Assembly (NCBI GenBank): GCA_023247055.1 | Contig: JAHFHF010000013.1 | Span: forward strand, 1 to 56,567 | Length of the DNA: 56,567 nt | Direction: 5' to 3' | Origin: Candidatus Omnitrophota bacterium | GTDB taxonomy: Bacteria; Omnitrophota; Omnitrophia; Omnitrophales; Aquincolibacteriaceae | Shown: piece by piece, positions 10,978 to 51,393 of the stretch | Numbering within the stretch: the first letter of the stretch is position 1 | Layout of the letters: every line of letters starts with the position of its first letter | The notes under the pieces: model-generated | The model's database searches: none | Told to the model about the DNA's origin: nothing | What the model saw: the letters and a program-made list of their open reading frames with translations, nothing else | Program-made: the position numbers and the translations under genes

Positions 10978-11412
10978 TTAGTTAAAAAGTTTTTCCGCTA
11001 AATCTTCAAAATTACCTTTGTTCGTATCAAAAAATTCTTTCCACTTTGCTTTCGCCCAAATTTCGATGCGGTCCGAAACACCGATAATCATGACGTCTTG
11101 TTCGATCACGGCGAACGATTTCAGGTAATCGGGAATCAGCACCCGGCCCTGTTTGTCGCAGATCACTTCCGCGGCGCCCGAGAAAAATAAACGGTTGAAG
11201 CGGCGCGCTTCTCCTTTGGTGAAAGGCATCTCGCGGAATTTGCGTTCCTGGCTTTTCCAGACCTCTTCGGTAAAAACAAAAAGACATTGATCTAATCCCC
11301 GCGTCACGAAAAATTTTTCGGCGTAATGTTCTTTAAAAATCTCACGGAACTTGGCAGGAATAATCACCCGCCCTTTCGCGTCCAGTGTGTGTTCGTATTC
11401 TCCGTAGAACAT
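10978..11412 (-). CDS. mraZ: Transcriptional regulator MraZ
   Basis: Two SpoVT/AbrB-type repeats: DAKGRVIIPAKFR and DKQGRVLIPDYLK. First gene of the dcw cluster. Confidence 0.9.
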   Translation of the reverse strand: MFYGEYEHTLDAKGRVIIPAKFREIFKEHYAEKFFVTRGLDQCLFVFTEEVWKSQERKFREMPFTKGEARRFNRLFFSGAAEVICDKQGRVLIPDYLKSFAVIEQDVMIIGVSDRIEIWAKAKWKEFFDTNKGNFEDLAEKLFN

Positions 11413-24313: not shown

Positions 24314-24718
24314 TTAGATCTGGACGACGCCGGCCTGGCCCATGACCTCTTCGGAAACAAAAACCGGCACGCCCGAGCGCACGGCCAGGGCCGCGCTATC
24401 CGAGGGCCGCGCATCAACCTGCAGACGGCCGCCGCTGTCTTTGACCAGGTTGAGTTTGGCGTAGAAGGTGCTGTTTTCCAGTTTGTCGATGACGACCGAT
24501 TCCAGCTTGACTTTGAGTTGTGACAGGACTTGCAGGATCAAATCATGCGTCAAGGGCCGGGGCGGCGTGACTCCGCTCAGCTTCATTTTGATGGATTGTA
24601 CTTCCGGCAGGCCGATCACGACGGGCAGGTAGCGGGTTCCTTCCTTTTCACGGAAGATAATGATATTTTCGCTGCGCGTTTCATCGATCTTGATCTTGTT
24701 TAAAACCAGTTCGATCAT
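24314..24718 (-). CDS. Bifunctional nuclease (DUF151/BFN domain) protein
   Basis: FREKEGTRYLPVVIGLPEVQSI...PRPLTHDL...ARPSDSAALAVR is the characteristic BFN pattern. Confidence 0.75.
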   Translation of the reverse strand: MIELVLNKIKIDETRSENIIIFREKEGTRYLPVVIGLPEVQSIKMKLSGVTPPRPLTHDLILQVLSQLKVKLESVVIDKLENSTFYAKLNLVKDSGGRLQVDARPSDSAALAVRSGVPVFVSEEVMGQAGVVQI

Positions 24719-26883
24719 GCGGGCCGCGTCTCAGCGTCTGCTTCGGGAGTAGCTTCATGCTCTGAGGCCGTGCCCGGAGAAGCCGCGCTGCGGCCCGCAA
24801 GACCCGGCCGGCCCGTCTTCACAGCTGCTTTTTCGCGCTTTGCCTGTTCCAGGTGATGGCGCTGGGCCTGCTTGCTCTCGACGATTTCTTTTTCGATGTG
24901 CTCCTGTTCGGCGAGAATGGCGCGCATTTTTTCTTCTTTTTGGCGCATTTCCTGCTCAAGCTGCCCCTGCTCCTGAATCAGGTTTTTCAGCCGCTCTTCG
25001 CGCTGAGCCATTTGTTCGGTCAGTTGGGCGCGCCGGTGGATCAGGTCCCGCTGTTCGAGCTGGGAAACCAACTCGCGCACCTGGCGCCGTGAAGCTTCGA
25101 GTTCGCGTTCGCGGTCTTCAACCAAGCGTTCACGTTCACGCAAAGCCTGGGCCGCGGCTGAGAGTTTTTGTTCCAAATCCGCAGATGCATGTTCCAAATC
25201 TTTGGCCCTTAGTTTCCATTCATCTGTCTGACGGGCCGTATCTTCGGTTTCTTTGACCAGCCGCAGACGGCTTTTTTCAAGAGTTTCATTTTTTTCGCGC
25301 AACAGGGCTGCTTCACTGCGCAGTTCTTCCGTCAGTGTCTGTGCGCTCAGTCTTTCCCGTTCCCCTTGCGCACGCGCATTTTGAGATTCGCTTTGCAAGG
25401 CCTGAAAGCGGCTTTTGTTTTCACTCAGGCTATTTTGCAGCGTATTGCGCTCTTCTTCTACGCGGGTCAGCCGCTCTTCCAGTTTGTTTTTGAAAATTTT
25501 TTCATCGCCCAAAAGGAGCCGCAGTTTGTCGATTTCCAAAGAAAGGTTTTCGCTGTTTGCGCGCCAGCTGGCAAGCTCCTCTTCGCGCGCGGCGCGGTGC
25601 TTTTCAAGTTCAGAAGCTTTGCGCTCAAAGGCCCGCAGGGATTCTTCCGTGCTGGAGGTCTTGATATGCAGGGCGGCAATCTCACCATTCAGGCGTTCGG
25701 CCTCATCCAGGCGCAGTTCCTGTTCCCTCTCAAGGCGTTTTTGCCAGTCCGCAGACTCCTCGCGCACTTCCTGAAGCAGGACAGCCAATTCGCGGTTTTT
25801 GGATTCCGCGACCTGCATCTTTTCCGTCAGGTCGGAGAGCGCCGCGCTGCGGCTTTCCAGTGTCTTTTCCAATTCCTGGCAGCGCCGGCTGAAATCCACG
25901 GCATCGCGCCGGAAAAGCACATTTTCTTCATGGACGACGGCCCGGGCCGCTTCCGCCGATTTCAGTTTCTCGGCAGTTTCTTCAAGCGCCGCAGTCCGGC
26001 TTTGCAGCATCTGTTCGACTTCACGCAGACGCACGCGCAATTTCTCGGTTTCCTGCTGAAAAGATGTTTTCTCCTGCCCGCCATCCAGCAGGCGTTTTTC
26101 AAGCTTGAGATAATCTTCTTCCGCGCGGCGGGCCTTCTGGACCCCTTCGTCCAGTTTGGTTTTCCACTTGCGGGCTTCTTCCTGGGCCGTGGCGACTTTG
26201 TTTTCGTAAAGGCTGCGGGCCTGGCGGTATTCTTCCTGAATCGCGTCATGCTTTTGCTCGGCCGTCTTGGCCAGTGCCTTCAAGCGGGACGTTTCCTGTT
26301 CCAGAGCCTGGATTTTTCCGGTGTCGGCCGGCTGCGGCACCGGTTTGCGCGTGTATTCTTTTAACTGTGCGCGCAGGGCCGCGGTTTCGCGCTCAAGTTC
26401 TTCGAGTTTACGGCGATCGGTTTCCACCGCCTGCAGGGCGTTGTCTTTGGACTTTGCAGCAGGCGCGGGAGCATTTTTGCGCAATTCAATCAGGGCTTCA
26501 TCCGGATCGAGCAGATGGGATTCGGAAAACGCGCTGCTTCCGGAAGAGCGGACCGGCATGGTTTCCAGAAAGGAAAGGCTCGGCTGCTCGGGCCAGACTG
26601 TGCGGTAGCATTTTCTTTTCACATACACATCGTTGGTGAGGAAAAGTTCGGCCGGCATGGTTTCAAAGTAATCTTTGACGCGGTCGGCAATCGAACGGGT
26701 CAAATTGTCGAGCAGGATAATCGGGGTGTTGTTGACCAGATCGAGAGATTCATCGAGAGCCAACTTAAAGGCTTCTGAGATCTTACGGGCCAGTTTGTGT
26801 TTGTCGATTTCATTGGTGACGGGATTGAGGACCAGGCTCCAATTCTGTTCGCGCTCCTGATTTTTACGGTTGCCTAAAAGCAT
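24715..26883 (-). CDS. 722-aa coiled-coil protein with a small globular N-terminal domain (possibly ribosomal L7/L12-CTD-like)
   Basis: About 100 aa of globular sequence, then about 550 aa of E/R/K/L/Q heptad-rich sequence. Overlaps the downstream nuclease gene by 4 nt. Confidence 0.7.
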   Translation of the reverse strand: MLLGNRKNQEREQNWSLVLNPVTNEIDKHKLARKISEAFKLALDESLDLVNNTPIILLDNLTRSIADRVKDYFETMPAELFLTNDVYVKRKCYRTVWPEQPSLSFLETMPVRSSGSSAFSESHLLDPDEALIELRKNAPAPAAKSKDNALQAVETDRRKLEELERETAALRAQLKEYTRKPVPQPADTGKIQALEQETSRLKALAKTAEQKHDAIQEEYRQARSLYENKVATAQEEARKWKTKLDEGVQKARRAEEDYLKLEKRLLDGGQEKTSFQQETEKLRVRLREVEQMLQSRTAALEETAEKLKSAEAARAVVHEENVLFRRDAVDFSRRCQELEKTLESRSAALSDLTEKMQVAESKNRELAVLLQEVREESADWQKRLEREQELRLDEAERLNGEIAALHIKTSSTEESLRAFERKASELEKHRAAREEELASWRANSENLSLEIDKLRLLLGDEKIFKNKLEERLTRVEEERNTLQNSLSENKSRFQALQSESQNARAQGERERLSAQTLTEELRSEAALLREKNETLEKSRLRLVKETEDTARQTDEWKLRAKDLEHASADLEQKLSAAAQALRERERLVEDRERELEASRRQVRELVSQLEQRDLIHRRAQLTEQMAQREERLKNLIQEQGQLEQEMRQKEEKMRAILAEQEHIEKEIVESKQAQRHHLEQAKREKAAVKTGRPGLAGRSAASPGTASEHEATPEADAETRPA

Positions 26884-27438: not shown

Positions 27439-27777
27439 TTATTGGGGACAAGCAGGCAGCGGGTAAAAACGAAAATCCTCGACCGGGATTCCCCCGTTCA
27501 GATGCTCGCAGATAATGCGTTCCATTTTTTCCGGCGTCACGTGGTGATACCAGACATTCTCCGGATAAACGACTGCCAACGGGCCGCCCTGACAGACACC
27601 GAAGCATTGGGATTGACTGCGCACAATTCTTTGCGCACCCGTATGCAGGTTTAATTCTTTAAGCCTTTCCTTCAGCTTCTGGTAAAGCGCGCCTGACACT
27701 TCCGGCGCGCACTTGCTGCCGGTGCAGACAAAAATATGCCGGCAAAAACCCTCGAGTTTAGGGACAGTTTCAGTCAT
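27439..27777 (-). CDS. Thioredoxin-like [2Fe-2S] ferredoxin
   Basis: [10 protein letters not shown] ... [20 protein letters not shown] is the typical Cys pattern. Confidence 0.75.
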
Positions 27778-27783: not shown

Positions 27784-28131
27784 CTATAATTTTTCCGTGC
27801 AGACGCGCGGAATCGTTCTTTCCATGGGAATCACGAATGTGCCGACTTCGGTCACCCCGGCTAGAATTCGGCGCAGCATAAAAACAGTGCCTTTGCCAAA
27901 CCCCGTGAAAAAACCGGAGAGCGCGGAGGTCTCGCGCATGTCGGCCGCCATGGTGCAAGGAATCTCAGCCGGACTGGTGAGAATATTTTCAAGGCCACGG
28001 CCGAATTTGGTGCCGATTTCAGCCAAATAATCCCTGGCCGTGCCTTCTGCGGCATAAAGCGGCGCAGCCCCATGCAGGCATGCAAGCAAAAAAAATAAAG
28101 CGCCGGTCCGTTTCATGCTGTGCTTTCCCAT
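27784..28131 (-). CDS. Small secreted protein resembling the exosortase-system-associated TIGR04073 family
   Basis: Signal peptide, then KFGRGLENILTSPAEIP...GFGKGTVFMLRRILAGVTEVGTFVIP. This resembles the KLxRGxxNxxxGxxEIP ... GxGxYExxTFPxP pattern as I recall it. Confidence 0.55.
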   Translation of the reverse strand: MGKHSMKRTGALFFLLACLHGAAPLYAAEGTARDYLAEIGTKFGRGLENILTSPAEIPCTMAADMRETSALSGFFTGFGKGTVFMLRRILAGVTEVGTFVIPMERTIPRVCTEKL

Positions 28132-28848: not shown

Positions 28849-30732
28849 TCAGGATTTTTCCGCAACCGGCGGAAACCGGACACAAATCACCGTATAATCG
28901 TCATGCGCCGGCGTGCCGTTTTGAAAACTCGACCAGGCCTGACGCAGACGCTCAATCGTCTCGGCGGCACTGCGGCGTTCCCGCCCGCAGATTTCAGCCA
29001 GCCGGCAAAGGCGTTCCATGCCGAACTCCTCGCCTTTGGGGTTGCGCATTTCGCGCAAGCCGTCGGTAATCAGCATAAAAAAATCGCCCGGGGCGAAGGG
29101 AATTTCCTGCAGGGCATAGTCGGCGTCTTCAAAAAGGCCCAGGGGCGGGCCGCCCTCTTTAGCGGCCAAAAACGCGGTCCGCGACGATGCCTGATAATAA
29201 ATCATTGCCTCATGCCCCGCAACGGCAAAAGCGATCTTCTGCTGCAAGGGGTCCAGGACCGCATAAATCAAAGTCAAAAAAAGACCGGTGGCTCCTCCGG
29301 CCAGACAGGCCTGGTTGAGCGCGCGGCAAACCTCGGCCGGCGACCGGTTCTGCTTGTTTTCGCGGCGGAATTCGCTGATCGCCTTAGCCATATAGAGCGC
29401 CGCAGGCATGCCCTTACCGGAGACATCCCCGATAACCACACCCCGGCGCGGCCCCTCGAATTTGACCCAGTCAAAGAGGTCGCCGCCGACGCTTTTGAGA
29501 AAACGGTGATCCCAGGCCATGTCCAGAACTCCGTCTTCGGCAATGTGGCCGGGTAAAAAAGTTTCCTGGATTTTGGAAGCCATTTCAAGTTCTCGCGATA
29601 AAAGTTCCCCCTGCATCCGGATGCTCAAAAATTTAAAGAGCAGCGCCATGAAAACCGTCGCCGCGAGTCCGGCCACGGGCACGCCCACGGGTAAAGCCCA
29701 GCCGGTCCGCGTAAACATCCAAAAATTCAGGGCCAGATAACCCGCCACCGCAGCCGCAAAAACCGTCAGCCCGACGCGCAAACTTCGCTGCATCACAATC
29801 CACGCTAACGGCAGGCACAGAAGCTGCAAAAGCAGAAAGCCGGCCCAAGGCGGCAAAGCGTGCATATAACGCCCGGAAAGCAGCGTATGAACGCAGGCGG
29901 CCTGGACGGAAAGCCCCACATCCGCTGGCGAAAAAGGTGTCGGCCTGAGATCCGTCGTGCCCGTGGCCGTATGCCCCACAATGACGATACGATTGCGAAA
30001 AAGTTCTTCCAATTCTGCCTGACGCCCGGTTTCAGCCAGCTGCAAGACGGCTTGAAAGGAAAGGCGGCGGTAGGCACTGACCGGGCCCGGATAATTGATG
30101 CGGATTTTAGTTTGCTGGTCCCGGGGCAGACGCTCGATCATCCTCTCGGGATAAGTCTCGCGATAGCGGAAGCCGAGAATTAAAAATGCCGGGCTGTAAT
30201 AGGCCTTGCCGTCACCGTCAATGGAAATACGCAGGCTGCGGGTGACGCCGTCGCTGTCAGGATCCACATTGACAAAACCCGTCGCGCCGGCCGCCTGCGC
30301 AAAAATCGGAAGGGGGAAAAAAGCCTCGAAAGGATCGAGTGAGGCGTAATAAAAAGGCAAAACCACATTGCCCAGTTTTCGGGTTGCGTCCGCCAAAGCC
30401 TGGTCCTGGCCGGGATTTGCACTGGCTTCGGTGAACAGAATGTCGAAAAAAACTGCCGCCGGTTTATGCTCCGCAAGAATGTCCAGCAAGCGCGCGTAGA
30501 GGCCGCGCGGCCAAGGCCACTGTCCCAAAGCTTTGAGGCTGCCGTCGTCAATTTCAACCAGAAGAATATCGGGATGGGCCGGCTGGGCACCGCGCAGGCG
30601 AAACCTGAAATCAATGGCGTTTTTCTCGCGAAAATCAACCGCCTGAAAAAAATCCAACAGAAAGAGGGCGGAAAGAAAAATGAAGATCCACACAAAGGGT
30701 TGGAGATTCTGCGCTTTGAAGGGGACGCGCAT
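28849..30732 (-). CDS. CHASE2 sensor domain / PP2C (SpoIIE-type) serine phosphatase
   Basis: N-terminus: ILLVEIDDGSLKALGQWPWPRGLYARLLDIL (CHASE2), followed by TM helices. C-terminus: GGDLFDW, GDVSGKGMPAALYMA, ITDGLRE (SpoIIE/PP2C). Confidence 0.8.
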   Translation of the reverse strand: MRVPFKAQNLQPFVWIFIFLSALFLLDFFQAVDFREKNAIDFRFRLRGAQPAHPDILLVEIDDGSLKALGQWPWPRGLYARLLDILAEHKPAAVFFDILFTEASANPGQDQALADATRKLGNVVLPFYYASLDPFEAFFPLPIFAQAAGATGFVNVDPDSDGVTRSLRISIDGDGKAYYSPAFLILGFRYRETYPERMIERLPRDQQTKIRINYPGPVSAYRRLSFQAVLQLAETGRQAELEELFRNRIVIVGHTATGTTDLRPTPFSPADVGLSVQAACVHTLLSGRYMHALPPWAGFLLLQLLCLPLAWIVMQRSLRVGLTVFAAAVAGYLALNFWMFTRTGWALPVGVPVAGLAATVFMALLFKFLSIRMQGELLSRELEMASKIQETFLPGHIAEDGVLDMAWDHRFLKSVGGDLFDWVKFEGPRRGVVIGDVSGKGMPAALYMAKAISEFRRENKQNRSPAEVCRALNQACLAGGATGLFLTLIYAVLDPLQQKIAFAVAGHEAMIYYQASSRTAFLAAKEGGPPLGLFEDADYALQEIPFAPGDFFMLITDGLREMRNPKGEEFGMERLCRLAEICGRERRSAAETIERLRQAWSSFQNGTPAHDDYTVICVRFPPVAEKS

Positions 30733-30740
30733 CGCGGCAG

Positions 30741-31361
30741 CTAATCTTTGCGGACGAGGCGCCAGGGACGGAATTTGAGATCGTGCGTCATGTCGCGGAT
30801 ATTGGCGGAAGTTTGATCCAGATTGCCCAGGATGCGCGCAATTTCTTCCTTATGTTCCACCATCAAGCCGTTCATTTCCTCCATCAACGGATTAAGCGAT
30901 TGGGTCAGTTCCTCCATGCGGTCGGCCATCAGATTCATTTTCTGGACCAGGAGATACATCGGAATCGGGTCCGTGCCGGTCAGGATTTTCCCGGCACCCA
31001 GGACCGGCTTTCCAGGGTCCCCGGGTTTGATCTCCACATATTTCTCGCCCATCATGCCCAGCGTATCGATAAAAGCCTCGCTGCCCTCTTTTAAATCCAA
31101 ATCGGCTTTCATTTCAACCGTCACGAGAATGGGATACGCATCCAGGGGACGCACTTCAATCGACTGGACCTTGCCGACTTCATGGCCGCCGTAACGCACG
31201 GGAGCATTTTTTTCAAGCCCGCTGATATAGCCGAACTCAATTGGCCAGGTGCGGGTTTCCGCCGTGGTATAGCGGCCGACAATCACCGTCAGTCCCAAAA
31301 GCAGCGCCAATGCGATAGTGACGAAAATGCCCGATTTAACTTCGGCGCCCGAATAAGCCAT
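30741..31361 (-). CDS. mlaD: MCE-domain protein MlaD
   Basis: N-terminal TM helix plus an MCE domain (VRYGGHEVGKVQSIEV). Follows mlaF and mlaE. Confidence 0.75.
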   Translation of the reverse strand: MAYSGAEVKSGIFVTIALALLLGLTVIVGRYTTAETRTWPIEFGYISGLEKNAPVRYGGHEVGKVQSIEVRPLDAYPILVTVEMKADLDLKEGSEAFIDTLGMMGEKYVEIKPGDPGKPVLGAGKILTGTDPIPMYLLVQKMNLMADRMEELTQSLNPLMEEMNGLMVEHKEEIARILGNLDQTSANIRDMTHDLKFRPWRLVRKD

Positions 31362-31389
31362 GTTCCCTCCCTAGGCTGAATAATCGATT

Positions 31390-32193
31390 CTAATTCTGTA
31401 AAAGACCTTTGAGATACGCGTCGCTGGTTTGAATAAACGGAATCGCCCCTTCCGGCTCGCCATTGATAAACTGCCGGATATAAGGATTTTTAGTATTTTG
31501 AATCTGCGGGCCCGTCCCGACTTCAAGCACCTTGCCGCGGTGCAAAACAATCATTTGGTCCGCAATCCGGAAGGCGCTTTTCATTTCGTGCGAAACCACT
31601 ACGGACGTAATTTTAAGTTTGCGGCTCAGATCCAAAATAAGCTGGTCGATCATGCTGGCTGTAATCGGGTCCAAGCCGGCGCCGGGCTCGTCATAAAAAA
31701 CAATTTTGGGATCAAGCGCGATCGCGCGCGCCAGCGCCACGCGCTTTTTCATCCCCCCCGAAATCTGATGCGGCATAAAGTTTTCAAAGCCGGTCAGTCC
31801 GACAAGTTCCAGTTTGACTTTCACGATGATCTTAATAATTTCATCCGAAAGGTCGGTGTGTTCACGAATGGGCAAAGCGACATTTTCTGCCACGGTCAGG
31901 GAGTTAAAAAGCGCCGCGCCTTGAAAGAGCATGCCGAATTTGCGTTTCACCGCATTCATGGGTCTCTCAGCCAACCCTACAATATTTTGCCCGTCGATTA
32001 AAATCTCGCCTTCATCCGGCTGATACAGGCCGATCAGGTGGCGCAGGAATGTGCTTTTGCCGCAGCCGGAGCCGCCCATGATCACCGAAATTTTTCCTTC
32101 CGGGATCTCGAGCGTAATGCCCTCCAAAACAACCCGGTTGCCAAAGCGTTTGACCAAGTTCCGCACGGAGATAATACTTTTTTCCTGCATCAT
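31390..32193 (-). CDS. mlaF: ABC transporter ATP-binding protein MlaF
   Basis: Walker A GGSGCGKST, signature ISGGMKKRVALARA and Walker B IVFYDEP. Confidence 0.85.
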   Translation of the reverse strand: MMQEKSIISVRNLVKRFGNRVVLEGITLEIPEGKISVIMGGSGCGKSTFLRHLIGLYQPDEGEILIDGQNIVGLAERPMNAVKRKFGMLFQGAALFNSLTVAENVALPIREHTDLSDEIIKIIVKVKLELVGLTGFENFMPHQISGGMKKRVALARAIALDPKIVFYDEPGAGLDPITASMIDQLILDLSRKLKITSVVVSHEMKSAFRIADQMIVLHRGKVLEVGTGPQIQNTKNPYIRQFINGEPEGAIPFIQTSDAYLKGLLQN

Positions 32194-32253
32194 CAGTCCT
32201 TCATCGTAAATCGTAGGAGGGACGGGTTCACAACCCGCCCCTACCGAATATTC

Positions 32254-33054
32254 TTAAGCCGGCAAAACGTAATACATGACGGCTGTGGAAAGGCAGTCCA
32301 TGACCAGAATCAGCACAATCGAAGTCACGACAGCCGAAGTCGTCGCGCGTCCCACCCCATCAGCGCCGCCTTCGACCGAAAGCCCCTGATGACAACTGAC
32401 CAGCGCGATCAAAACCGCAAAAAGGCCGCTTTTGATCAAGCCCGTGTAAATATCTTTGAGGACCAGCGCGTCAAAGGTTTTGGCAATGTAAAGATAGGGA
32501 TTCATGCTCAACCCGAGCGTTGAAATCAAAAAACCACCCACCATGCCCATGACATCCGCCACGACCGTCAAACATGGGAGAATCAGCAGAAACGCCAGAA
32601 AACGGGGCAGCACAAGATACTGCACCGGATTCAGGCCCATGGTGGAAAGGGCATCGACTTCTTCCTGGACCTTCATCGTGCCGAGTTCCGCGGCCAGACG
32701 GGCGCCCACACGGCCGGAAAGCACAATGGCGGCGACGAGCGGGCCGAGTTCCCGGGTCACGGACACACTGACGAGACTACCGGTATAAAGTTCAGCGCCA
32801 AACTGTTTCAACTGATAGGAAGCCTGAAGCGCCAGCACCATTCCGACGGACGCGCCGACCAGACAGATAATGGCGAAAGAATCTACGCCCATCAGCACGA
32901 CCTGATGGAAGAGATGGCGCAGTTGAATGGTTTTTTTTTGGAAAGGGGCCCTAAAAAGAAGACCGAAAACCTCAAAGAGAAGGCCGCTCAAGCGCCCCAT
33001 GCCGGCCATCATAAAGCCGGATGTTTCCCCGATTTTTCCGAAAAAATCACGCAT
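32254..33054 (-). CDS. mlaE: ABC transporter permease MlaE
   Basis: 266-aa polytopic membrane protein with MlaE/TTG2B-like blocks (GPLVAAIVLSGRVGA, LVLPR). Confidence 0.8.
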   Translation of the reverse strand: MRDFFGKIGETSGFMMAGMGRLSGLLFEVFGLLFRAPFQKKTIQLRHLFHQVVLMGVDSFAIICLVGASVGMVLALQASYQLKQFGAELYTGSLVSVSVTRELGPLVAAIVLSGRVGARLAAELGTMKVQEEVDALSTMGLNPVQYLVLPRFLAFLLILPCLTVVADVMGMVGGFLISTLGLSMNPYLYIAKTFDALVLKDIYTGLIKSGLFAVLIALVSCHQGLSVEGGADGVGRATTSAVVTSIVLILVMDCLSTAVMYYVLPA

Positions 33055-33055
33055 G

Positions 33056-33102
33056 GGCGCCTTTGCTAGCGCCTGCGCAGGTTTCCTTGGCCTGCGAAGC
33101 GC
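33056..33102. repeat. REP-like GC-rich hairpin pair (inverted copy of the 51394 motif)
   Basis: The reverse complement of 33065-33102 is GCGCTTCGCAGGCCAAGGAAACCTGCGCAGGCGCTAGC, about 33/38 identical to 51394-51431. Hairpins: GGCGC/GCGCC and CGCAGG/CCTGCG. Confidence 0.7.
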
Positions 33103-33135
33103 TGTGTTTAAGTAAGACTTAAAACCGGGACAGTT

Positions 33136-33474
33136 TTAACTCGCTGCTAATTCCAGCGCTTCGGCTTCAGTGGCGGCGAGAGTAAAAACCTTGTCCAGCT
33201 TGGCAATTTCAAAAACGCTGCGTACCGACGGCATGAGTTCGGTCAGCACCAGCTTGCCGCTGGAACGCTTAGCCTTTTGCAGAGCCTCCACAAACGTGGC
33301 CAGCCCCGAACTGTCGATGTAGTTGACTTTTTTAAGGTTGATAATGACTTTGTGGGATGATTTTTCCGTCACAGGCTGCAGTTTGCTGCGCAGGTCCGGA
33401 GACGTGTGAAAGTCGAGTTCGCCGGCCAACTCGAAAACATGCACATCGCCGGCCTGCCGCTGTTGAATTTTCAT
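33136..33474 (-). CDS. STAS-domain anti-sigma-factor antagonist (phosphorylatable; possible MlaB analogue)
   Basis: SpoIIAA/RsbV-like, with an intact NYIDSSGLATFVEAL motif. Overlaps the kinase gene by 4 nt and lies directly upstream of mlaE. Confidence 0.8.
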   Translation of the reverse strand: MKIQQRQAGDVHVFELAGELDFHTSPDLRSKLQPVTEKSSHKVIINLKKVNYIDSSGLATFVEALQKAKRSSGKLVLTELMPSVRSVFEIAKLDKVFTLAATEAEALELAAS

Positions 33475-33938
33475 AAAGGACCTCTTTTATCTTTGTATTT
33501 TTTTAAATGAAGAAGATTGCCGCTGCGAAACGATTCATCGTAAGTAACTTCGTCCATGAGTTTGCGCGTCAGAAAAATTCCAAGCCCCCCCGGATTTTCA
33601 GGCGGCAATTTTGGCGCGGGCTGGTTCAGCGGATTAAATTTAGCGCTGTAATCTTTGATTGAAATCTTAAGGCTTCCGTCTGAAAAACGGGCATCCAATT
33701 CAATTTTTCCGGGCCCGCCGCGGTAACCGTGCCGGATAATATTGGTCAAGCGTTCATCCACGGCCAAAACCACTTCGCCGGAACTTTTTTCGTCGAAACC
33801 AGCTTGCGCCAAAAATGCCCGCAGGTCCTCGCGAAAACCCGCCAGCCGGGCGGTGGCGGCATCGAGCGCAAATTGTTTATGAAGAAGACACATGCCTGTT
33901 TGAAGCGCCATTGTAGCCTGCGCCGCGGCGCTTGCCAA
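33471..33938 (-). CDS. RsbW/SpoIIAB-like anti-sigma serine kinase (HATPase_c)
   Basis: ERLTNIIRHGY (N-box) and PGGLGIFLTRKLMDEV (G2 box). Confidence 0.75.
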   Translation of the reverse strand: MASAAAQATMALQTGMCLLHKQFALDAATARLAGFREDLRAFLAQAGFDEKSSGEVVLAVDERLTNIIRHGYRGGPGKIELDARFSDGSLKISIKDYSAKFNPLNQPAPKLPPENPGGLGIFLTRKLMDEVTYDESFRSGNLLHLKKYKDKRGPL

Positions 33939-39264: not shown

Positions 39265-40674
39265 TTAGCCCGCTGACTTTGCAAAAAGCCGCTTCAGGAC
39301 CGTTGTTACGGTTTTAAGGACAATCGCCAAATCCAGGTTAAAACTCAGATGCTCGACGTAATAAAGATCGTAATCCATGTTCTCATGAATCAGAAGCCTT
39401 TTGCGGTCTTCGCTGACCTGCCAAAGGCCGGTAATCCCCGGCTTTAACTGCAGCCGTTCTTTTTCAAGGCTGCCATATTTTTCGACAATGAAAGGCATTT
39501 CCGGACGCGGCCCGATCAAACTCATTTCTCCGCGCAGAATGTTAAGGAGCTGCGGAATTTCATCCAGACCTGACTTTCTTAAAAAAGCGGCAAAGCGGCC
39601 GATCGGCATCGTTTCTTTTTTCAAGCTGATTTCCGGGGAAATCGCATCGGCCAACCCGGCTTTGAGCGTGCGGAATTTATAAACCCTAAATGGCTTCCCG
39701 CCCTGCCCCACCCGGATTTGCCGGAAAAGAACCGGCCCTCCGGAAGTCAGCACAATACCTAAAGCAATTAAACCATACACGGGGGCAAGCAGGACCGCCA
39801 AAATCAAGGCCGTTAAAAAATCCAGAATCCGTTTTACAAAAAAATACGCTTTCAGCCGGACTTCTTTGCGCAGGCCTACCAGCGGAATTCCGCCGATACT
39901 GTAAAAACTGATCCGTTCAATGTGCGGGTGAAAAACAGCCGGAATGGCCCAGCAGGTGATTTCCATTTCCTGACAGATCTGGAAAAAATCATAGATATCC
40001 ACGTCCTCAAATTTCCGGTTTGTAATAAAAAGGACCTGGATATTTTCGCGTTCCACCGTGGCCCTTAAATTTTCAAACCCTCCCAGAATCGCCAGCGACG
40101 CCGGCTGACGCACCAGCCTTTCGGTATGATCATCGAGAAAACCCACGACTTTAATCCCGAGTTTCGGCGATTGCTCAATCCAGCGCGCGAGCCGCTGGCC
40201 ATGATAACCTGCGCCATAGATCAGCGCCCGTTGGCCGAAAAGCCCCCTCGCATGCAGCCATGCATAAACCCGCCGCATCCCATGACGCTCAAGGCTGATC
40301 AGCAGAATGGAAATAAAGACCGAATAGAATGTGGCCAAGCGCGAAAAGTCGCTGCCGCGGTAAAAAAAAGAAACCACAAACGCGGCAGCATAAAGTAGCC
40401 AAAGGGCTTTAAAAATAAGGCTTTGCTCCGCGACACCCATGACCCCCATCTGGTGTTTATACAGGCCGACCCCATGAAAAACTAAAAGCCCCAAAGGCGG
40501 AACAATCCCCAAGATGACCGAGTAATTCGCAAAGGGCTGGTAATGACCATGCCAGGGATAAGTGATCCACAGCCAGTAGCCGAGCAGAAGTGCGGCGTTA
40601 AGGCAGCAAAAATCAAGCGCGGCGGTCACGGCCACTAAAAGAGGTCCGCCCCGTTGGACGGGCTTATTTTTCAT
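39265..40674 (-). CDS. Exopolysaccharide priming polyprenyl glycosylphosphotransferase (WbaP/EpsB-like)
   Basis: TM helices, a central Rossmann-like region, and a C-terminal Bac_transf domain (KFRTLK, GLDEIPQLLNILRGEMSLIGPRPE). Start trimmed to the ATG that forms an ATGA overlap with the upstream stop. Confidence 0.85.
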   Translation of the reverse strand: MKNKPVQRGGPLLVAVTAALDFCCLNAALLLGYWLWITYPWHGHYQPFANYSVILGIVPPLGLLVFHGVGLYKHQMGVMGVAEQSLIFKALWLLYAAAFVVSFFYRGSDFSRLATFYSVFISILLISLERHGMRRVYAWLHARGLFGQRALIYGAGYHGQRLARWIEQSPKLGIKVVGFLDDHTERLVRQPASLAILGGFENLRATVERENIQVLFITNRKFEDVDIYDFFQICQEMEITCWAIPAVFHPHIERISFYSIGGIPLVGLRKEVRLKAYFFVKRILDFLTALILAVLLAPVYGLIALGIVLTSGGPVLFRQIRVGQGGKPFRVYKFRTLKAGLADAISPEISLKKETMPIGRFAAFLRKSGLDEIPQLLNILRGEMSLIGPRPEMPFIVEKYGSLEKERLQLKPGITGLWQVSEDRKRLLIHENMDYDLYYVEHLSFNLDLAIVLKTVTTVLKRLFAKSAG

Positions 40675-41444
40675 TTGTTTTTTCCCTTGAAGACACGGTA
40701 AAAAAAATAGGGGTTTCCCAGAATATACCGGCCGAAAAGCCGCAGCGGGTCTTGAAAAAAGCGAAAGAGCCATTCCATCTGCAAACGGATCATCCACTCC
40801 GGGGCTTTCGCCAGCCGGCCGGAGGCATAATCAAAAGCCGCGCCGCCTTTTAAAAAAACATGGGCCCGCACCCGCTGCCAATTTTCTGCAATCCATTTTT
40901 CCTGGGCCGGCATGCCGAAACACGTCAGCAGGATATCCGGCCGGGCCTGATTGATCTGCGAAACCACGGCTTCATTTTCAGCACCGGCTTTCTGGAAATG
41001 CCCGTGGTGGATGCCCGCGATTTGCAGCGCCGGATAACGTTTTTTTAAATTTTCTGCCGCTTCGGCCGCAATGCCCGGCTGGGCGCCCAGAAAAAAAAGA
41101 CTAAATCCGTTTTGCACACAAAATTCCGCCAGCGGCCAAAGCCACTGATTATAAGTGATTTTAGGCGGCGGTGAATAGCCCCGCAATTTGAGCGCCCAGC
41201 GCACGCCGTCGCCGTCGCAAAAGACAAGCTGGGCCTGTTTAATGAATTCATAGAGCCAGGCATGCTTCAAAGCCAGATTGATGCAATGAACGTTTAAATT
41301 GAGCGCAATGGCTTTTTCGCCGCGCGTGATGACCTGCCGGATAAATGCGTGGACTTCCGTCAGGCCCGCGCGGTTCATCGGAAGCCCGAGAAGTTCCATG
41401 TCGGGAGTGGTTTTTGCAGCCGGCGCGTAAGAGGGATCCGTCAT
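40671..41444 (-). CDS. WecB/TagA/CpsF-family (GT26) glycosyltransferase
   Basis: VHCINLA...VFCDGDGVRWA...FFLGAQPG...ILLTCFGMPAQEKW is the family pattern. Confidence 0.75.
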   Translation of the reverse strand: MTDPSYAPAAKTTPDMELLGLPMNRAGLTEVHAFIRQVITRGEKAIALNLNVHCINLALKHAWLYEFIKQAQLVFCDGDGVRWALKLRGYSPPPKITYNQWLWPLAEFCVQNGFSLFFLGAQPGIAAEAAENLKKRYPALQIAGIHHGHFQKAGAENEAVVSQINQARPDILLTCFGMPAQEKWIAENWQRVRAHVFLKGGAAFDYASGRLAKAPEWMIRLQMEWLFRFFQDPLRLFGRYILGNPYFFYRVFKGKNK

Positions 41445-42136
41445 GGTTTAAAGCCTTCCACGATCATAAAGGATTTCACCAGGCCCAGCAACCGTTCCTC
41501 CCGGATAAATGCTCCGGGAAATAAGAGCTTCAGTTCCTTGCGGGTCAAGAGCCGCACGGAACGCGCTTCGCGCAGGGCCTCCTCGCGGTCTGGAATTTTT
41601 TTGCGCCACCCGAGGTCAAAATGCTGAATCAGAAAAGCCCGGCAGCCCGCCGGCAAAAACTGAAAAAAAGGAAATACGAAGTGCGGTTCCACGGGGAAAA
41701 ACCGGTTCGGGGTCTGGACAAATAAATTCTTTCCCACCCGCCTTAATTCATCGGCCATTCGCTTTTGGTCCTTAAAATCGCCCACGTGCTCGATCACCGA
41801 ATTCGAGAAAACGACGTCGAAACTTTTGTCCGCAAAACGCCCTAGGTCCCGGACATCCCCGGTCTGGCAGGAAAGGTTTTCAGCATCAGCGGCGGCGGGC
41901 TCGAGATTAAGCAGTGTGATCCTGTAATCCGGGTTTCCGGCCAAGCCCATCCGGATCCAGTAACCTTCCGTTCCCCCGGCATCTAAAAGGGTGACGGGTC
42001 TTGGAAATGAATTCAGAAGCGAACGAAAAAACTCCATCCGGCCCCGGCGGAACGACGCGGCCCAGGAATCTTTCCGGTGATGGTCATAAAGCCAGCGCAT
42101 GGTCTTGCTCCTGCTTCGTGTTTTTTTGCAGCACAT
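41441..42136 (-). CDS. Class I SAM-dependent methyltransferase
   Basis: LLDAGGTEGYW (motif I) and VVFSNSVIEHV. The true start may be MRWLYD (42100). Confidence 0.7.
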   Translation of the reverse strand: MCCKKTRSRSKTMRWLYDHHRKDSWAASFRRGRMEFFRSLLNSFPRPVTLLDAGGTEGYWIRMGLAGNPDYRITLLNLEPAAADAENLSCQTGDVRDLGRFADKSFDVVFSNSVIEHVGDFKDQKRMADELRRVGKNLFVQTPNRFFPVEPHFVFPFFQFLPAGCRAFLIQHFDLGWRKKIPDREEALREARSVRLLTRKELKLLFPGAFIREERLLGLVKSFMIVEGFKP

Positions 42137-43412
42137 AAAATAATTTAATTTCTTTTCCCAGATAAAGAATTACGCCGGCGACCAGAAAGTACATAAAAGC
42201 CGTAAGCGGAATCGAATCCAAACCGCTGGTCAACAGCACCGCATCCGCGGTCAGATGACTGATTCCAAGATACCTCCACAACGTGCGGTGCTCTTCGGTC
42301 AAAAGATATTTTTTTTGTGAAAACCACGAGAAGAGCATGAAAATCTGGAACGCAAGAAATGCGCCAAGCCCCAGGATTCCGGTCACAAGCAGTATTTCCA
42401 CATAGTGCGAATGCGACCCGACGATCATGGTCGAAAACTCATCCCTCGGCCGGGCGCCGAGCCCAAGCAGCGGGTTTTGCTCCATGACTTGTGAAAAAGC
42501 CTCTTTATAAATCCCCAGCCGGCCCCAGGTGCTGTCGGGACGGATGGAAAGCAGCCATTGAAATGCCAGATAAAGCCGGTCTACCAGCGGAAAAAAAACG
42601 CAAAAATAAAAGAAACACCAAAACGGCTTGATTCCGATCTCGATCAACTTGACGGCAAGCCAGGCTGCCAACAGCGCACACACGGCCGTCCGTGAGAGCG
42701 AAAAGAAAAAGGGAACGAGTAAAACCATAAAAATTCCGGCGCTGACCCACCGGCGGCTCTCTTTCAAGCGTTGAAACCCCATCGACAAGGGTAGAATCAT
42801 GGCCATAAAACCACCGGTGGCAATAGGCACCCCGCTGTAGACGCTGATCCGGGGCATATTGCCGATCTTCCAATCCAGCGTCACCCCCTGAATGACCCAT
42901 TGAATATAAAAAAAGGGATAATTTTTAAGCCCCGGCCACAAATGCGCCAGCAGCGGCTCCATCCGGAAGGTCCATTTCAGGACCCACCATGCGCCTAAAA
43001 AAAAGAGGGCGATGCCGGCCGTGATCAACGCTAAACGGTTCCCCGCTGCAAAAAACCTGCGGGGAAACCCGGGCGCCGCGGCATTATAGACGGTCAGCAT
43101 CAAGCAGAACCCCATGACAAACATAAGGTAATTATTCGCGGATGCAATGATTCTTTGCAGCGGATGGTTTCCGAAATTGAATAAAAGCGAGGTTAGATAA
43201 ATCACCATAAAGAAAAACAGCCCTAAAAGCGGCCGGGGAATGCTGAGCGGACTATCGGAATAGAAGCTCCAGACAAAGAGCTTGAGCAGCACCAGCAGTC
43301 CGATCACCTGATAAATCATTACGTTTAAGCCGAGCAGCCACCAAAGCGGGGTCAATCCTAGCGTCAGCAGCAGGTCGGTTTCGATTTTTGTTTCAAGAAA
43401 AGGTATTTTCAC
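42084..43412 (-). CDS. O-antigen ligase/polymerase-like (Wzy-type) membrane protein
   Basis: About 10 or more TM segments, with a central SLSRTAVCALLAAWL block typical of the Wzy_C region. Confidence 0.6.
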   Translation of the reverse strand: MKIPFLETKIETDLLLTLGLTPLWWLLGLNVMIYQVIGLLVLLKLFVWSFYSDSPLSIPRPLLGLFFFMVIYLTSLLFNFGNHPLQRIIASANNYLMFVMGFCLMLTVYNAAAPGFPRRFFAAGNRLALITAGIALFFLGAWWVLKWTFRMEPLLAHLWPGLKNYPFFYIQWVIQGVTLDWKIGNMPRISVYSGVPIATGGFMAMILPLSMGFQRLKESRRWVSAGIFMVLLVPFFFSLSRTAVCALLAAWLAVKLIEIGIKPFWCFFYFCVFFPLVDRLYLAFQWLLSIRPDSTWGRLGIYKEAFSQVMEQNPLLGLGARPRDEFSTMIVGSHSHYVEILLVTGILGLGAFLAFQIFMLFSWFSQKKYLLTEEHRTLWRYLGISHLTADAVLLTSGLDSIPLTAFMYFLVAGVILYLGKEIKLFYVLQKNTKQEQDHALAL

Positions 43413-44500
43413 TTTTCGACCCGGACGGAGATCCTAAGTTCTGTATAGAACTGCTCATACTGTTGAATCATGCCGGCAAAGGAATGCTTTTGGCCGGTCT
43501 GCCGGGCGGATGCTCCCCAGGATTTCAGTTTCTCAGGCTGATTTAAAACCTGTAAAAGCGCTTGGCCGAGATGCTGCGCCGAGCGTGGTGGAACCAGTAA
43601 CCCGTTCTCGCCGTCACGTACAATATCGCGCGTGCCTTCAATCGCGGTTGCAATCACCGGTTTACCCGCATAAAACGCCTCGATAACACTCCTCGGCATT
43701 CCCTCCCAAAGCGACGGCAGGATCAAAAAATCACAGACCTCAAGCCATTCTGGAACGGCATCCGTATATCCGGTGAAAATAAAATTGCCGCGGACTTCAA
43801 GAGTTTGCGCTTTTTTTTCCAGAGCAGCGCGCAGCTTTCCATCGCCCGCAAGGACAATCCGGAGACGCAATCGGTCTTGGGGAGGTAAACCCGCAACGGC
43901 CTCCATCAGATAAGCATGGCCTTTTTGTTCTTCAAACCGGCCGATACAAAGCCCGGTCAGCTGCCCGGGCGCGGCGGGATAATGTGTTTTCAAATCCTCC
44001 ACCTGCCGGGCGGATGCGAACCGCAGCTGAGCCGCATTGGGAATGGCCCGAACAAGGCTCTCTGGCACGCGGTAATAATCGATCAAATGGCGGCGCAGCG
44101 ACTCGGAAACCGTAGTCACTCGATGGCCATAACGGTAAAAAAAACGATGGTTTTTTTTAAGCACGCGTTCCGTATGCAGAATCCGGTTTCCCCGTTTAAA
44201 CAACAAATCCAGCAAAAACGTGGTGAACCGGTGATGCGAGTGGATGATATCCGGAGTAAAGTCCCGTAATATCCGGCGCAGCTGCCGGATCAGGCCGGGA
44301 ATCTGAAACTTGGAACGCGGGATTTCAAACACCCGAATATTTTCCTGACGCAGATGCTCGGCCAGCGGGCCGGCATTCACCGCAGCCCGGATTTCATACC
44401 GGTTTGTTTTTTTCAGGGCGGATGCAAGTTCAAATACGCCTTTGGCAGCTCCTCCCAAACCTCCGTCTGGATTGTAGAGGTGGACCAATAAAATTTTCAT
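43409..44500 (-). CDS. Glycosyltransferase family 4
   Basis: GGLGGAAKGVFELA N-terminus and the EGMPRSVIEAFYAGKPVIAT EX7E motif. Confidence 0.8.
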   Translation of the reverse strand: MKILLVHLYNPDGGLGGAAKGVFELASALKKTNRYEIRAAVNAGPLAEHLRQENIRVFEIPRSKFQIPGLIRQLRRILRDFTPDIIHSHHRFTTFLLDLLFKRGNRILHTERVLKKNHRFFYRYGHRVTTVSESLRRHLIDYYRVPESLVRAIPNAAQLRFASARQVEDLKTHYPAAPGQLTGLCIGRFEEQKGHAYLMEAVAGLPPQDRLRLRIVLAGDGKLRAALEKKAQTLEVRGNFIFTGYTDAVPEWLEVCDFLILPSLWEGMPRSVIEAFYAGKPVIATAIEGTRDIVRDGENGLLVPPRSAQHLGQALLQVLNQPEKLKSWGASARQTGQKHSFAGMIQQYEQFYTELRISVRVEK

Positions 44501-45186
44501 GTCCGGCGGCCTGCTACGGCGATAATTTCAAAATGCCGCCGGATTTTCCCAAGACAGTTTAAGGCAAACCCATAGGCCGCCGGCCCGCATAAACGGTAAA
44601 GAGGCAGAAAAAATTTTCTGCCGTTCAGCGCGTTAAAACGGACACGGACGTCACCGCAGCCGGCACTTTCCATCAGGTTGCGAAGAGTTCTAAGGTTCCA
44701 GGAATAAAGATGGTGATCCGTATCATCCGCCTTAGGTTTGAGGCCCGGCGATTCTGCAGGAACCACCACGATCAGCCGGCCTTGCGGCTTTAAATACGCC
44801 TGAAGCGTTTTCAGCAACGCATACGGCTCAGGGACATGCTCCAGAACATGCCGTAAAAGGATAAAATCAAAACGTCTTTGCGGCGTGATTTCCTCAAGCG
44901 CTGCGGCCGTCTGAAAGCCTAAACTTTGGATATACTCCCGCGCCGAACGGGCCGGCTCCAGGGCCAGGACCTCCGCCTCTTTTTGAATCCCAAGCAAATT
45001 ATTCCCAAAACCTGCGCCGACTTCTAAAACCGACTGTCCGGACTGGAGGCCTTTGAAATAGACCTGCCGGGCATAGCAGCCCCAGGCTTCTCTTAAAACC
45101 GCGTCTTCCCGCATACTCCTCAAATGACGGTGGCGCTGATGATGGTAGCTGTCGCCTTCGGCCGAAGCATAATCAAGGAGAGACAT
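44497..45186 (-). CDS. Class I SAM-dependent methyltransferase
   Basis: VLEVGAGFGNN motif I and FILLRHVLEHV. Confidence 0.7.
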   Translation of the reverse strand: MSLLDYASAEGDSYHHQRHRHLRSMREDAVLREAWGCYARQVYFKGLQSGQSVLEVGAGFGNNLLGIQKEAEVLALEPARSAREYIQSLGFQTAAALEEITPQRRFDFILLRHVLEHVPEPYALLKTLQAYLKPQGRLIVVVPAESPGLKPKADDTDHHLYSWNLRTLRNLMESAGCGDVRVRFNALNGRKFFLPLYRLCGPAAYGFALNCLGKIRRHFEIIAVAGRRT

Positions 45187-50735: not shown

Positions 50736-50736
50736 G

Positions 50737-51336
50737 CTAAAAGAAACTCCTCGGGACAATGACCCGGTCATTGGCGCGCAGGCCCGGATCGTTGTCCCCC
50801 TTGCCGTCTTTTTTGGTCAAGTTAGAAATATTGACTTCGAAACTGCTTTGCTGGTCCCCTTCCATGCGGATCACTTTCACCTTGGAAGGGTTCGCGACTT
50901 CCGTAAATCCGCCTGCATAGGTAATTGCCTCAAACACGGTCATTTTCCCGGTCAGGGGAAAAGACCCTGGATTTTTCACTTCGCCAAAAACAAAAATACT
51001 GCTGAATTCTTTGACAAAAACCGTTACTTGGGGATTGACCAGATATTTCTCGGCCAGAAGAGCGCTCACCTTTTCCTGAAGGCCCTGGACCGTCTCTCCC
51101 GCGGCCGTAATCTGGCCCAGCAGCGGCATGGAAATCTTTCCATCAGTCAAGACCCTCGCCTCTTTGGTCAAGTCCGGTTCATCATAAACCTCGATTTCAA
51201 GAAGGTCGCCTATACCGATATGATAGTCTTGCGCGGATTTCGCGCCGGATTCTGGCGATTGGGCAGACAGGTGGAACGGGCTTGAAAGAAAAATGAGCAG
51301 GCCGAGCGGCAGAGTGCGAAAAATAGCCATAGACAT
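50737..51336 (-). CDS. Polysaccharide export protein (Wza-like, Poly_export plus SLBB)
   Basis: Signal peptide, YHIGIGDLLEIEVY, FVFGEVKNPGSFPL. Confidence 0.8.
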   Translation of the reverse strand: MSMAIFRTLPLGLLIFLSSPFHLSAQSPESGAKSAQDYHIGIGDLLEIEVYDEPDLTKEARVLTDGKISMPLLGQITAAGETVQGLQEKVSALLAEKYLVNPQVTVFVKEFSSIFVFGEVKNPGSFPLTGKMTVFEAITYAGGFTEVANPSKVKVIRMEGDQQSSFEVNISNLTKKDGKGDNDPGLRANDRVIVPRSFF

Positions 51337-51393
51337 AAGTAGATTATCGGCTGACGGCGGTCAAAATTAAAGGGACTCCTAGAGCAAGACACT

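Follow-up and report, generated by a model that had tools for sequence, protein, structure and literature searches.

What does a complete partner-switching module control when the genes packed around it encode a lipid transporter and no sigma factor is found near it? This question is raised by a 56,567-nt (56.6-kb) stretch of DNA from a Candidatus Omnitrophota bacterium (contig JAHFHF010000013.1 of assembly GCA_023247055.1; the whole stretch is called the window hereafter), in which genes for an RsbW/SpoIIAB-type serine protein kinase and a SpoIIAA/RsbV-type STAS protein lie upstream of mlaE, mlaF, and mlaD and are followed by a gene for a membrane phosphatase that combines a CHASE2 sensor with a PP2C/SpoIIE domain (Table 1). 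An initial annotation, made from the sequence alone, had read this cluster as partner switching with a transporter as its output. We favor the same reading, at a probability of roughly 55%, namely, that an Mla/MCE lipid ATP-binding cassette (ABC) transporter is gated by a phospho-switchable STAS protein that would act as a functional analogue of MlaB, the STAS protein of the Escherichia coli Mla transporter. Genomic-context evidence of the strongest sort supports this proposal, and every prediction of it that was tested held.

Domain calls with Pfam and NCBIfam on the open reading frames (ORFs) of the window agree with the positions that the initial annotation gave for the six genes. All are on the minus strand, within a tight run of ORFs from 27.8 to 33.9 kb and downstream of a riboflavin operon (ribBA, ribH, nusB, ribD, ribE), and the 4-nt overlap reported between the kinase and STAS genes is seen in the ORF coordinates. 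Judged by their profile scores, MlaF and MlaD are family-level members rather than equivalogs of the E. coli proteins: MlaF reaches 255 bits on PRK11831, under the 441-bit equivalog cutoff, while MlaD reaches 62.9 bits on PF02470 (cutoff, 25.1) and 67.6 bits on TIGR04430, under the cutoff of that family. The cluster was also said to lack a sigma factor, mlaC, and a canonical mlaB, and indeed none was found among the Pfam-scanned ORFs of the window, with tblastn searches also null. Specifically, Pfam scans of nearly all window ORFs returned no sigma factor, MlaC, or MlaA domain, and E. coli MlaC had no tblastn match in the window or in 82 related loci; for mlaA, the window-ORF Pfam scans are the extent of the evidence, no search aimed at it having been made. 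A window without MlaC or MlaA matches fits the published view, from a phylogenomic survey, of MlaABC as mostly proteobacterial (PMC10665443).

Table 1. Features of the partner-switching and mla gene cluster and the genes downstream of it
Feature	Position in window (nt)	Strand	Evidence or remark
RsbW/SpoIIAB-type serine protein kinase, HATPase_c_2	33471-33938 (longest ORF)	minus	PF13581, E 3.9e-27
Promoter-like site TTGGCA-17 nt-TACAAT	33910-33938	minus	consensus scan, 10/12 matches; pattern match only
STAS protein, 112 amino acids, SpoIIAA/RsbV type	33136-33474	minus	Pfam STAS, E 3.2e-25; TIGR00377, 88 bits (cutoff 53)
DSSG motif (D54-S55-S56-G57) of the STAS protein	33304-33315	minus	translation
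MlaE-family permease	32254-33054	minus	PF02405, E 1.4e-78; TIGR00056, 239.4 bits (cutoff 212.2)
MlaF-type ABC ATPase with C-terminal extension	31390-32193	minus	best NCBIfam match PRK11831 (MlaF), 255 bits
YLKGLL motif in the MlaF C-terminal extension	31399-31416	minus	translation; motif comparison of 66 MlaF tails
MlaD, MCE domain, 206 amino acids, N-terminal membrane anchor	30741-31361	minus	PF02470, E 3.3e-17
Membrane sensor phosphatase, CHASE2 and PP2C/SpoIIE	28849-30732	minus	PF05226, E 2.9e-52; PF07228, E 1.5e-44
Secreted protein of no family (earlier "FecR-like"), 249 amino acids	28134-28883	minus	likely start ATG 28832
TIGR04073-family secreted protein	27784-28131	minus	TIGR04073, 53.5 bits (cutoff 50)
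2Fe-2S ferredoxin	27439-27777	minus	Pfam/NCBIfam

The first step toward an answer concerns the sigma factor. Partner-switching sigma factors belong to group 3, which RpoS and FliA queries would detect. With E. coli RpoS, FliA, and RpoE as tblastn queries, no match at E ≤ 0.01 was obtained in the window or in the 82 loci (up to 20 kb each), and no sigma70 family appeared among the families with at least two members in a Pfam scan covering 125 flanking ORFs and 26 diverse loci. The search reached to within about 10 kb in the 82 loci, a range in which an extracytoplasmic function (ECF) sigma factor very distant from RpoE could escape tblastn. Within that range, no related genome was found to place a cognate sigma factor with the kinase/STAS pair, as the initial annotation required of its proposal, and neither a cognate sigma factor nor another kinase-sequestered protein was found to be encoded with the module. 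Because there is no sequestered sigma factor, the module is not fully a classical partner-switching one.

The same results bear on the possibility that the target lies elsewhere in the cell. It could be a sigma factor, of the SigB/SigF type or a housekeeping one (as has been suggested for Chlamydia RsbW), or else a diguanylate cyclase or some exopolysaccharide (EPS) or exosortase function; the mla genes would then merely be co-transcribed or co-regulated as envelope-stress genes. The STAS protein and the kinase are closest by sequence to sigma-controlling systems, and the sigma search covered the window and the loci rather than whole genomes, but in known sigma-controlling modules, the sigma factor is usually encoded in the same operon, and none was found near the pair in loci from several phyla. 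An EPS cluster and a gene of the TIGR04073 "exosortase-associated" family do occur in the window, but the EPS genes are not conserved neighbors. Moreover, although orphan STAS members without mla genes exist (in loci L045, L060, L066, L074, and L080), the Verrucomicrobiota cassettes described below retain only STAS, mlaEFD, and a phosphatase-kinase, with every flank different. On balance, we regard a remote target as quite unlikely.

The second step concerns how faithfully the switch genes accompany the transporter genes. From an alignment of 35 STAS homologues, 80 species-level loci were drawn from GTDB genomes, and their genes were called by tblastn and locally built hidden Markov models; the taxon labels follow the names of the metagenome-assembled genomes (MAGs), some of which are probably mis-binned. 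A cultured host of the cassette was sought, and only MAGs and metagenome records were found. Of 76 assessable loci, 71 have mlaE directly behind the STAS gene; mlaF then follows at 60 of 63 loci and mlaD at 52 of 54. Among the 74 Mla-linked loci, 66 have a kinase gene, which lies directly upstream of STAS in 63. Synteny of the kinase/STAS pair with mla in related genomes, on which the initial annotation had staked its case, is therefore real, and an arrangement that recurs at this frequency (71 of 76 loci) is far beyond chance.

Gene order can nevertheless be inherited, and the adjacency might be meaningless, a switch unrelated to Mla that happens to lie in a conserved region. Within Omnitrophota, a comparison of the window (15 to 35 kb) with three further loci (L090 to L092) revealed a shared order that begins with the rib operon, kinase-STAS-mlaEFD, TIGR04073, DUF4870, and a coiled-coil protein and continues through a BFN nuclease, trxB, DUF547, rplU and rpmA (L21/L27), obg, and proB, such that the rib operon is no less "conserved" a neighbor in that phylum. 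The CHASE2-PP2C gene and that for the 249-amino-acid secreted protein are present or absent by Omnitrophota lineage; where present, they occupy one and the same position, flanked by mlaD and TIGR04073. The case for a functional link rests instead on other lineages, in which the genes are permuted or fused or the flanks have changed. Other Omnitrophota (L001), Verrucomicrobiota, UBP3/Auribacterota, and Planctomycetota-labelled MAGs carry the cassette between unrelated flanks, and its switch genes have been permuted or fused yet are still attached to mla. These cross-phylum data already disfavor meaningless synteny, which we consider very improbable.

Several of these versions are informative. 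In a 72%-identical Omnitrophota locus, kinase-STAS-mlaEFD-CHASE2/PP2C stands behind two-component and fatty-acid genes, not behind the rib operon. In 3 of the 25 loci in which a PP2C gene follows mlaD, phosphatase and kinase form one GAF-PP2C(SpoIIE)-HATPase_c_2 polypeptide; two of these loci are from Verrucomicrobiota (L064 and L065), and the third (L059, 12813-14507) is labelled "Blastochloridaceae" but is probably mis-binned, its gene content being of the Verrucomicrobiota type. A search seeded with the fusion protein, and hence independent of the STAS seed, returned more than 100 protein clusters at 41 to 86% identity, among which the only named sources were Verrucomicrobiota MAGs. All three of the fusion-seeded loci that were examined (L087 to L089, fusion at 6001-7700) read STAS-mlaE-mlaF-mlaD-fusion, and their flanks all differ. 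Since the flanks are unrelated, the fusion cassettes offer no local target other than the transporter.

The third step concerns whether the switch could operate. The best solved relative of the kinase is SpoIIAB (1l0o, E 1.4e-8), and its N-box Glu/Asn, G1 Asp, and G2 GxG residues are kept in at least 95% of 68 homologues from the related loci. Its G1 box reads D-Y-S-A-K-F, not DxGxG, and presumably resembles the DEGDSF of RsbW. While the initial annotation was right about the identity of the kinase, its TTG start at 33938 is doubtful. The ORF that begins there encodes 155 amino acids, whereas the homologues run from 132 to 148, and the TTG is covered by a promoter-like site, near the sigma-70 consensus, in the 24-nt spacer between ribE and the kinase gene. 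For both reasons, the true start is probably ATG 33893, giving a protein of about 140 amino acids. The site itself suggests, as a prediction from a pattern match, that the cluster has its own promoter, separate from that of the rib operon.

The STAS protein carries the intact DSSG motif that had been ascribed to it. The first serine of that motif, Ser55, aligns with Ser58 of SpoIIAA, whose S58A mutant chain (1tid_B) reads DASG where the window protein has DSSG, and with Thr52 of E. coli MlaB (hhalign probability, 67%; E 5e-5). Hence, Ser55, not the second serine, is the predicted phospho-acceptor. The family is under unusually strong constraint: across the 35 STAS homologues, no variation is seen in Tyr52, in the stretch D54-S-S-G-L-A-T-F-V62, or over much of helix 3. 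We dropped conservation of DSSG across the fetched loci as evidence, as it is partly circular: DSSGLATFV was one of the two search patterns, and the motif is to that extent built in. In the phosphatase, the PP2C motifs GGD, DVSGKG, TDG, and DD are conserved in 33 homologues. Because hydrophobic segments flank it, the CHASE2 domain is predicted to face the periplasm, with the PP2C domain in the cytoplasm. All three switch components thus look active, as far as their residues can tell.

How such a switch might act on the transporter can be hypothesized from the E. coli system. There, MlaB binds the helical subdomain of MlaF by its helical face, and MlaF leaves the complex when MlaB is missing; Thr52 of MlaB is positioned centrally in this interface, and the phosphomimetic T52E weakens binding (PMC7367683). 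The authors of that study found phosphoregulation of MlaB intriguing but left it untested, with no known kinase (Kolich 2020, PMC7367683), and our search of the searchable literature returned no paper that links a kinase or a phosphatase to Mla or MlaB. In the model that we infer for STAS-MlaF binding, the sign of the regulation, its signal, and the lipid substrate, unphosphorylated STAS would dock by its helical face on MlaF, at the helical subdomain and the C-terminal extension, as MlaB does in E. coli, such that MlaF assembles on the complex and hydrolyzes ATP, and the transporter is licensed. The RsbW-like kinase would then bind the same face of STAS and phosphorylate Ser55, ejecting STAS from MlaF and turning transport off. 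Finally, the CHASE2-PP2C phosphatase would sense a periplasmic or envelope cue and dephosphorylate STAS-P, turning transport back on. The protein that switches partners would be STAS, alternating between MlaF and the kinase, rather than the kinase, and the output would be transporter activity rather than transcription.

The MlaF protein of the window has the features expected of a STAS-binding ATPase. It aligns end to end with the MlaF chains of Acinetobacter baumannii, Pseudomonas aeruginosa, and E. coli, which are structurally characterized MlaB binders, whereas MceG of Mycobacterium smegmatis, which has no STAS partner, aligns with it only to residue 258. The C-terminus reads ...SDAYLKGLLQN, compared with ...GDYHADLLPGS in E. 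coli, and its YLKGLL motif corresponds to Y261/L265/L266 of E. coli MlaF, residues that fill the groove between MlaB and MlaF (Kolich 2020, PMC7367683). A Y-x3-[LI]-hydrophobic motif is found in essentially all MlaF proteins of the related loci, among the 66 tails that were compared. We take the Y-x3-L-L motif in the MlaF tail as supporting evidence only.

The transporter could also be the output if the kinase, and not STAS, were the effector. In that case, the RsbW-like kinase would bind and inhibit MlaF or another Mla component, unphosphorylated STAS (made by PP2C) would sequester the kinase and relieve the inhibition, and STAS would never touch the transporter. The kinase does have the size and type of SpoIIAB/RsbW and is usually encoded immediately upstream of STAS, with the 4-nt overlap in the window, but STAS is the component most constantly next to mlaE, and at least six Mla-linked loci with upstream sequence have STAS and no nearby kinase. 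Similarly, STAS is structurally a typical antagonist, and the sole detectable co-evolution signal is that between STAS and the kinase, but known Mla biology assigns the binding of MlaF to the STAS protein. In Verrucomicrobiota, moreover, the kinase is fused to the opposing phosphatase and a GAF sensor, as would suit a SypE-like enzyme that sets a phospho-state and not a stoichiometric inhibitor. Since such a fusion only sets the phospho-state of STAS, as SypE does for SypA, STAS is favored over the kinase as the effector, and we consider a kinase acting on the transporter unlikely. The rates of divergence are compatible with an additional conserved partner of STAS, in that divergence is slower for STAS than for the kinase: median identities to the window proteins are 55% for STAS, 39% for the kinase, and 74% for MlaF.

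Several observations weigh against a STAS-gated transporter. First, the STAS protein does not resemble MlaB most. Its AlphaFold2 model (predicted local distance difference test score [pLDDT], 93) has five strands and four helices, including a strand at 98-100 and a helix at 103-111 that make the fold non-minimal, while E. coli MlaB is a minimal STAS protein of four strands and three helices, without the fifth strand and the last helix (Kolich 2020, PMC7367683). The structural comparison that the initial annotation had proposed came out in favor of the sigma-type antagonists: the top Foldseek matches are 4hyl, RsbV (6m36), and SpoIIAA (1th8), with template modeling (TM) scores of 0.83 to 0.89, and E. 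coli MlaB (7ch7_E) ranks 30th, with a TMq of 0.63. Sequence searches agree, as SpoIIAA is matched at E 1e-13 and the E. coli MlaB chains at E 0.3 to 0.5 (phmmer), and the NCBIfam profile mlaB_1 (NF033618) gives 24.4 bits (E 2.8e-5) against a 90-bit cutoff, which is below the family. By sequence and model, then, the protein is a full five-strand SpoIIAA/RsbV-type antagonist and not a member of the MlaB family. The claim that it is the MlaB equivalent therefore survives in its wording as an "analogue" and fails as family membership; if STAS does the job of MlaB, it would be an analogue of MlaB or only distantly related to it.

Second, the linkage is incomplete. A PP2C gene was found in the cluster in 30 of the 74 Mla-linked loci (25 have it after mlaD and 5 ahead of the kinase gene) and in 19 of the 40 with ample flanks, leaving over half without one; five loci of the subfamily have no adjoining mla genes; and three Phycisphaerae-type loci (L062, L067, and L076) have kinase-STAS-mlaE with no adjoining mlaF or mlaD. 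Because these last loci keep kinase-STAS-mlaE, the STAS-kinase pair tracks mlaE also when the gene for the ATPase is at another site. Conservation within Omnitrophota is, in turn, weak evidence on its own, since gene order there is shared over the whole region that runs from the rib operon as far as obg. Third, in a mirror-tree analysis of 50 loci, all five proteins co-diverge (r, 0.86 to 0.96), and the partial correlation controlling for MlaE is −0.08 for STAS and MlaF versus 0.43 for STAS and the kinase. As these partial correlations track evolutionary rate, with kinase and MlaD likewise at 0.43, we do not read the STAS-MlaF null as counterevidence. Fourth, MlaF's C-terminal extension, considered as a marker of a STAS partner, proved non-diagnostic and was set aside, as the MlaF of Veillonella has a short one although no MlaB is present (PMC10665443). 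Finally, the T52A variant of E. coli MlaB is non-functional yet still binds MlaF (PMC7367683), a result that complicates a simple phospho-switch and suggests that the role of the site may go beyond switching binding. A profile search with the STAS alignment against 1.84 billion representative proteins (54,752 matches at E ≤ 1e-3 and 14 at E ≤ 1e-30) added nothing to either side, since it came without gene context.

The atypical loci have contents of their own. In L045 (Candidatus Omnitrophus fodinae), a fusion of an HD_5 (HD-GYP-like) domain to a kinase (1228-2660) precedes STAS, and a pyruvate:ferredoxin oxidoreductase gene lies downstream on the opposite strand. The other four loci without mla genes, all from Verrucomicrobiae MAGs, hold orphan STAS genes, with no kinase, PP2C, or mla gene within 10 kb, among housekeeping genes such as infC, rplI, and dnaB or genes for a HAD hydrolase and a glycosyltransferase; the STAS protein of one of them (L066) is, among the proteins of the loci, the closest to E. 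coli MlaB (tblastn E 1.4e-5). In the three Phycisphaerae-type loci, the next genes have sugar-nucleotide and glycosyltransferase functions or are nusB and ftsY. Three UBP3/Auribacterota MAGs (L075, L079, and L081) encode a CHASE2 protein, PP2C, kinase, STAS, mlaE, and mlaF, followed, in the place of mlaD, by a HisKA/HATPase_c histidine kinase; the STAS motif there reads S-S-A-G instead of D-S-S-G, with the acceptor serine retained and the Asp lost.

Downstream of the phosphatase gene, the initial annotation had placed two secreted proteins. The label "FecR-like" for the first does not hold, since the protein has no Pfam match and the one weak FecR match is that of a 25%-identical homologue in another Omnitrophota locus (L001). 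Further homologues, with 23 to 41% identity, were found in L003, L004, L007, L008, and L009; because it occurs in the closest relatives only, the membership of this protein in the system is uncertain. The second, by comparison, does pass the TIGR04073 profile, as claimed. In 29 related Omnitrophota loci, its gene comes directly behind mlaD or behind that for PP2C, and in a search seeded with TIGR04073, it immediately followed mlaD in two of two loci (L091, 7001-7348; L092, 7001-7360). The window protein has a signal peptide, a Gly-rich GFFTGFGKG stretch, invariant Cys54 and Cys106, and a lipobox-like LLAC that is not conserved in homologues. Its AlphaFold2 model (pLDDT, 57.8) was unreliable and too low in confidence for a fold search. 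The TIGR04073 protein may be a periplasmic partner or accessory of an MlaC-less transporter.

Other parts of the window hold further observations. A second STAS gene (10614-10952, minus strand; 112 amino acids; Pfam STAS, E 2.5e-15) sits between mraZ (10978-11412) and rsmH (9716-10624) in a division and cell-wall cluster, with no adjoining kinase gene; as its motif reads E-L-A-G where the first has D-S-S-G, its product is not phosphorylatable at the canonical site. A charged coiled-coil protein of 722 amino acids (24314-26883, minus strand) overlaps by 4 nt with the start of a gene with a bifunctional-nuclease domain (BFN_dom), and in the Omnitrophota loci L090 to L092, synteny takes in this pair, the gene for a DUF4870/MamF_MmsF-like membrane protein, and trxB. 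A polysaccharide export and assembly cluster (39265-52726, minus strand), which is not conserved beside the mla cassette in other loci, encodes a sugar transferase, two Wzy_C O-antigen-ligase-like proteins, a GT4 glycosyltransferase, two methyltransferases, a MurJ-like flippase, a Wzz/GNVR tyrosine-kinase-type co-polymerase, and a BBP2_2 beta-barrel. Two large minus-strand ORFs, at 1767-4958 (1,063 amino acids) and 53260-56562 (1,100 amino acids), have no Pfam match at E ≤ 0.001; the latter adjoins the EPS cluster and extends as far as the window's end.

Partner switches with non-sigma outputs and a STAS subunit on the Mla transporter were known separately, and the cassette described here combines the two. 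A broader hypothesis, to which we give slightly less than even odds, is that reversible serine phosphorylation of a STAS protein is a widespread and possibly ancestral means of gating Mla/MCE transporters in Omnitrophota, Verrucomicrobiota, and related lineages. This would be the first partner-switching module with an ABC transporter as its output, and the kinase-less MlaB of Proteobacteria, whose essential Thr52 is unexplained, would be a reduced relative of such a switch. If the gating proposal is true, an ABC transporter joins the list of partner-switching outputs, with a bearing on the post-translational regulation of ABC transporters, and of Mla in particular. It would also suggest signal-gated outer-membrane lipid homeostasis in these little-studied diderm phyla, with a periplasmic input through CHASE2 in Omnitrophota and a cytoplasmic one through GAF in Verrucomicrobiota. 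Through recombinant proteins, the cassette offers a natural test system for the phosphoregulation proposed for MlaB Thr52 (Kolich 2020). A phylogenomic survey that used an MlaB-specific profile found MlaB to be mostly proteobacterial (PMC10665443); such a profile would probably miss the SpoIIAA-like STAS family, given the 24 bits that the window protein scores on mlaB_1, and our reading would revise the published picture of the Mla STAS subunit as essentially proteobacterial.

Among known systems, the Rsb proteins of Chlamydia (RsbU-RsbV1/V2-RsbW; PMC4552016, PMC11619594) offer a parallel from a lineage related to the Planctomycetes-Verrucomicrobia-Chlamydiae (PVC) group, in that they form a complete set whose sensor phosphatase is a membrane protein and that lacks a cognate alternative sigma factor; they differ in that their genes are dispersed, their proposed target is sigma-66, and no linkage to mla has been reported. 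The SpoIIE-SpoIIAA-SpoIIAB and RsbU-RsbV-RsbW modules of Bacillus share the three protein families, the DSSG acceptor, the catalytic motifs, and the fold with the window type, which departs from them in having no sigma factor in the operon or in the surrounding sequence that was searched, transporter genes as its conserved neighbors, and a sensor that is a membrane CHASE2 domain or, in Verrucomicrobiota, GAF.

Closer in principle are SypE/SypA of Vibrio fischeri, SiaABCD of P. aeruginosa, and BtrUVW of Bordetella, in which a non-transcriptional effector is likewise controlled by a STAS-like protein whose phospho-state a PP2C phosphatase and an RsbW-like kinase set, and the HenR-STAS system of Anabaena follows the same non-sigma principle, with a glycosyltransferase as its output (PMC13555669). 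The outputs of this group are a diguanylate cyclase, a secretion system, a biofilm function, and a glycosyltransferase, and the searchable literature yielded no non-sigma partner-switching module tied to an ABC transporter or to lipid transport. The GAF-PP2C-kinase fusion of Verrucomicrobiota parallels the bifunctional SypE. With MlaFEDB of E. coli (Thong 2016; Kolich 2020, PMC7367683), the cassette shares an Mla ABC transporter encoded together with a single-domain STAS protein, a Ser/Thr at the position of Thr52, and a C-terminal extension of MlaF with a Tyr/Leu-Leu motif. E. coli MlaB, however, has 97 amino acids, is encoded at the end of mlaFEDCB, and has no known kinase or phosphatase, whereas the STAS gene of the window stands before mlaE in a cluster where tblastn found no mlaC, and its product is accompanied by a dedicated kinase and a PP2C phosphatase.

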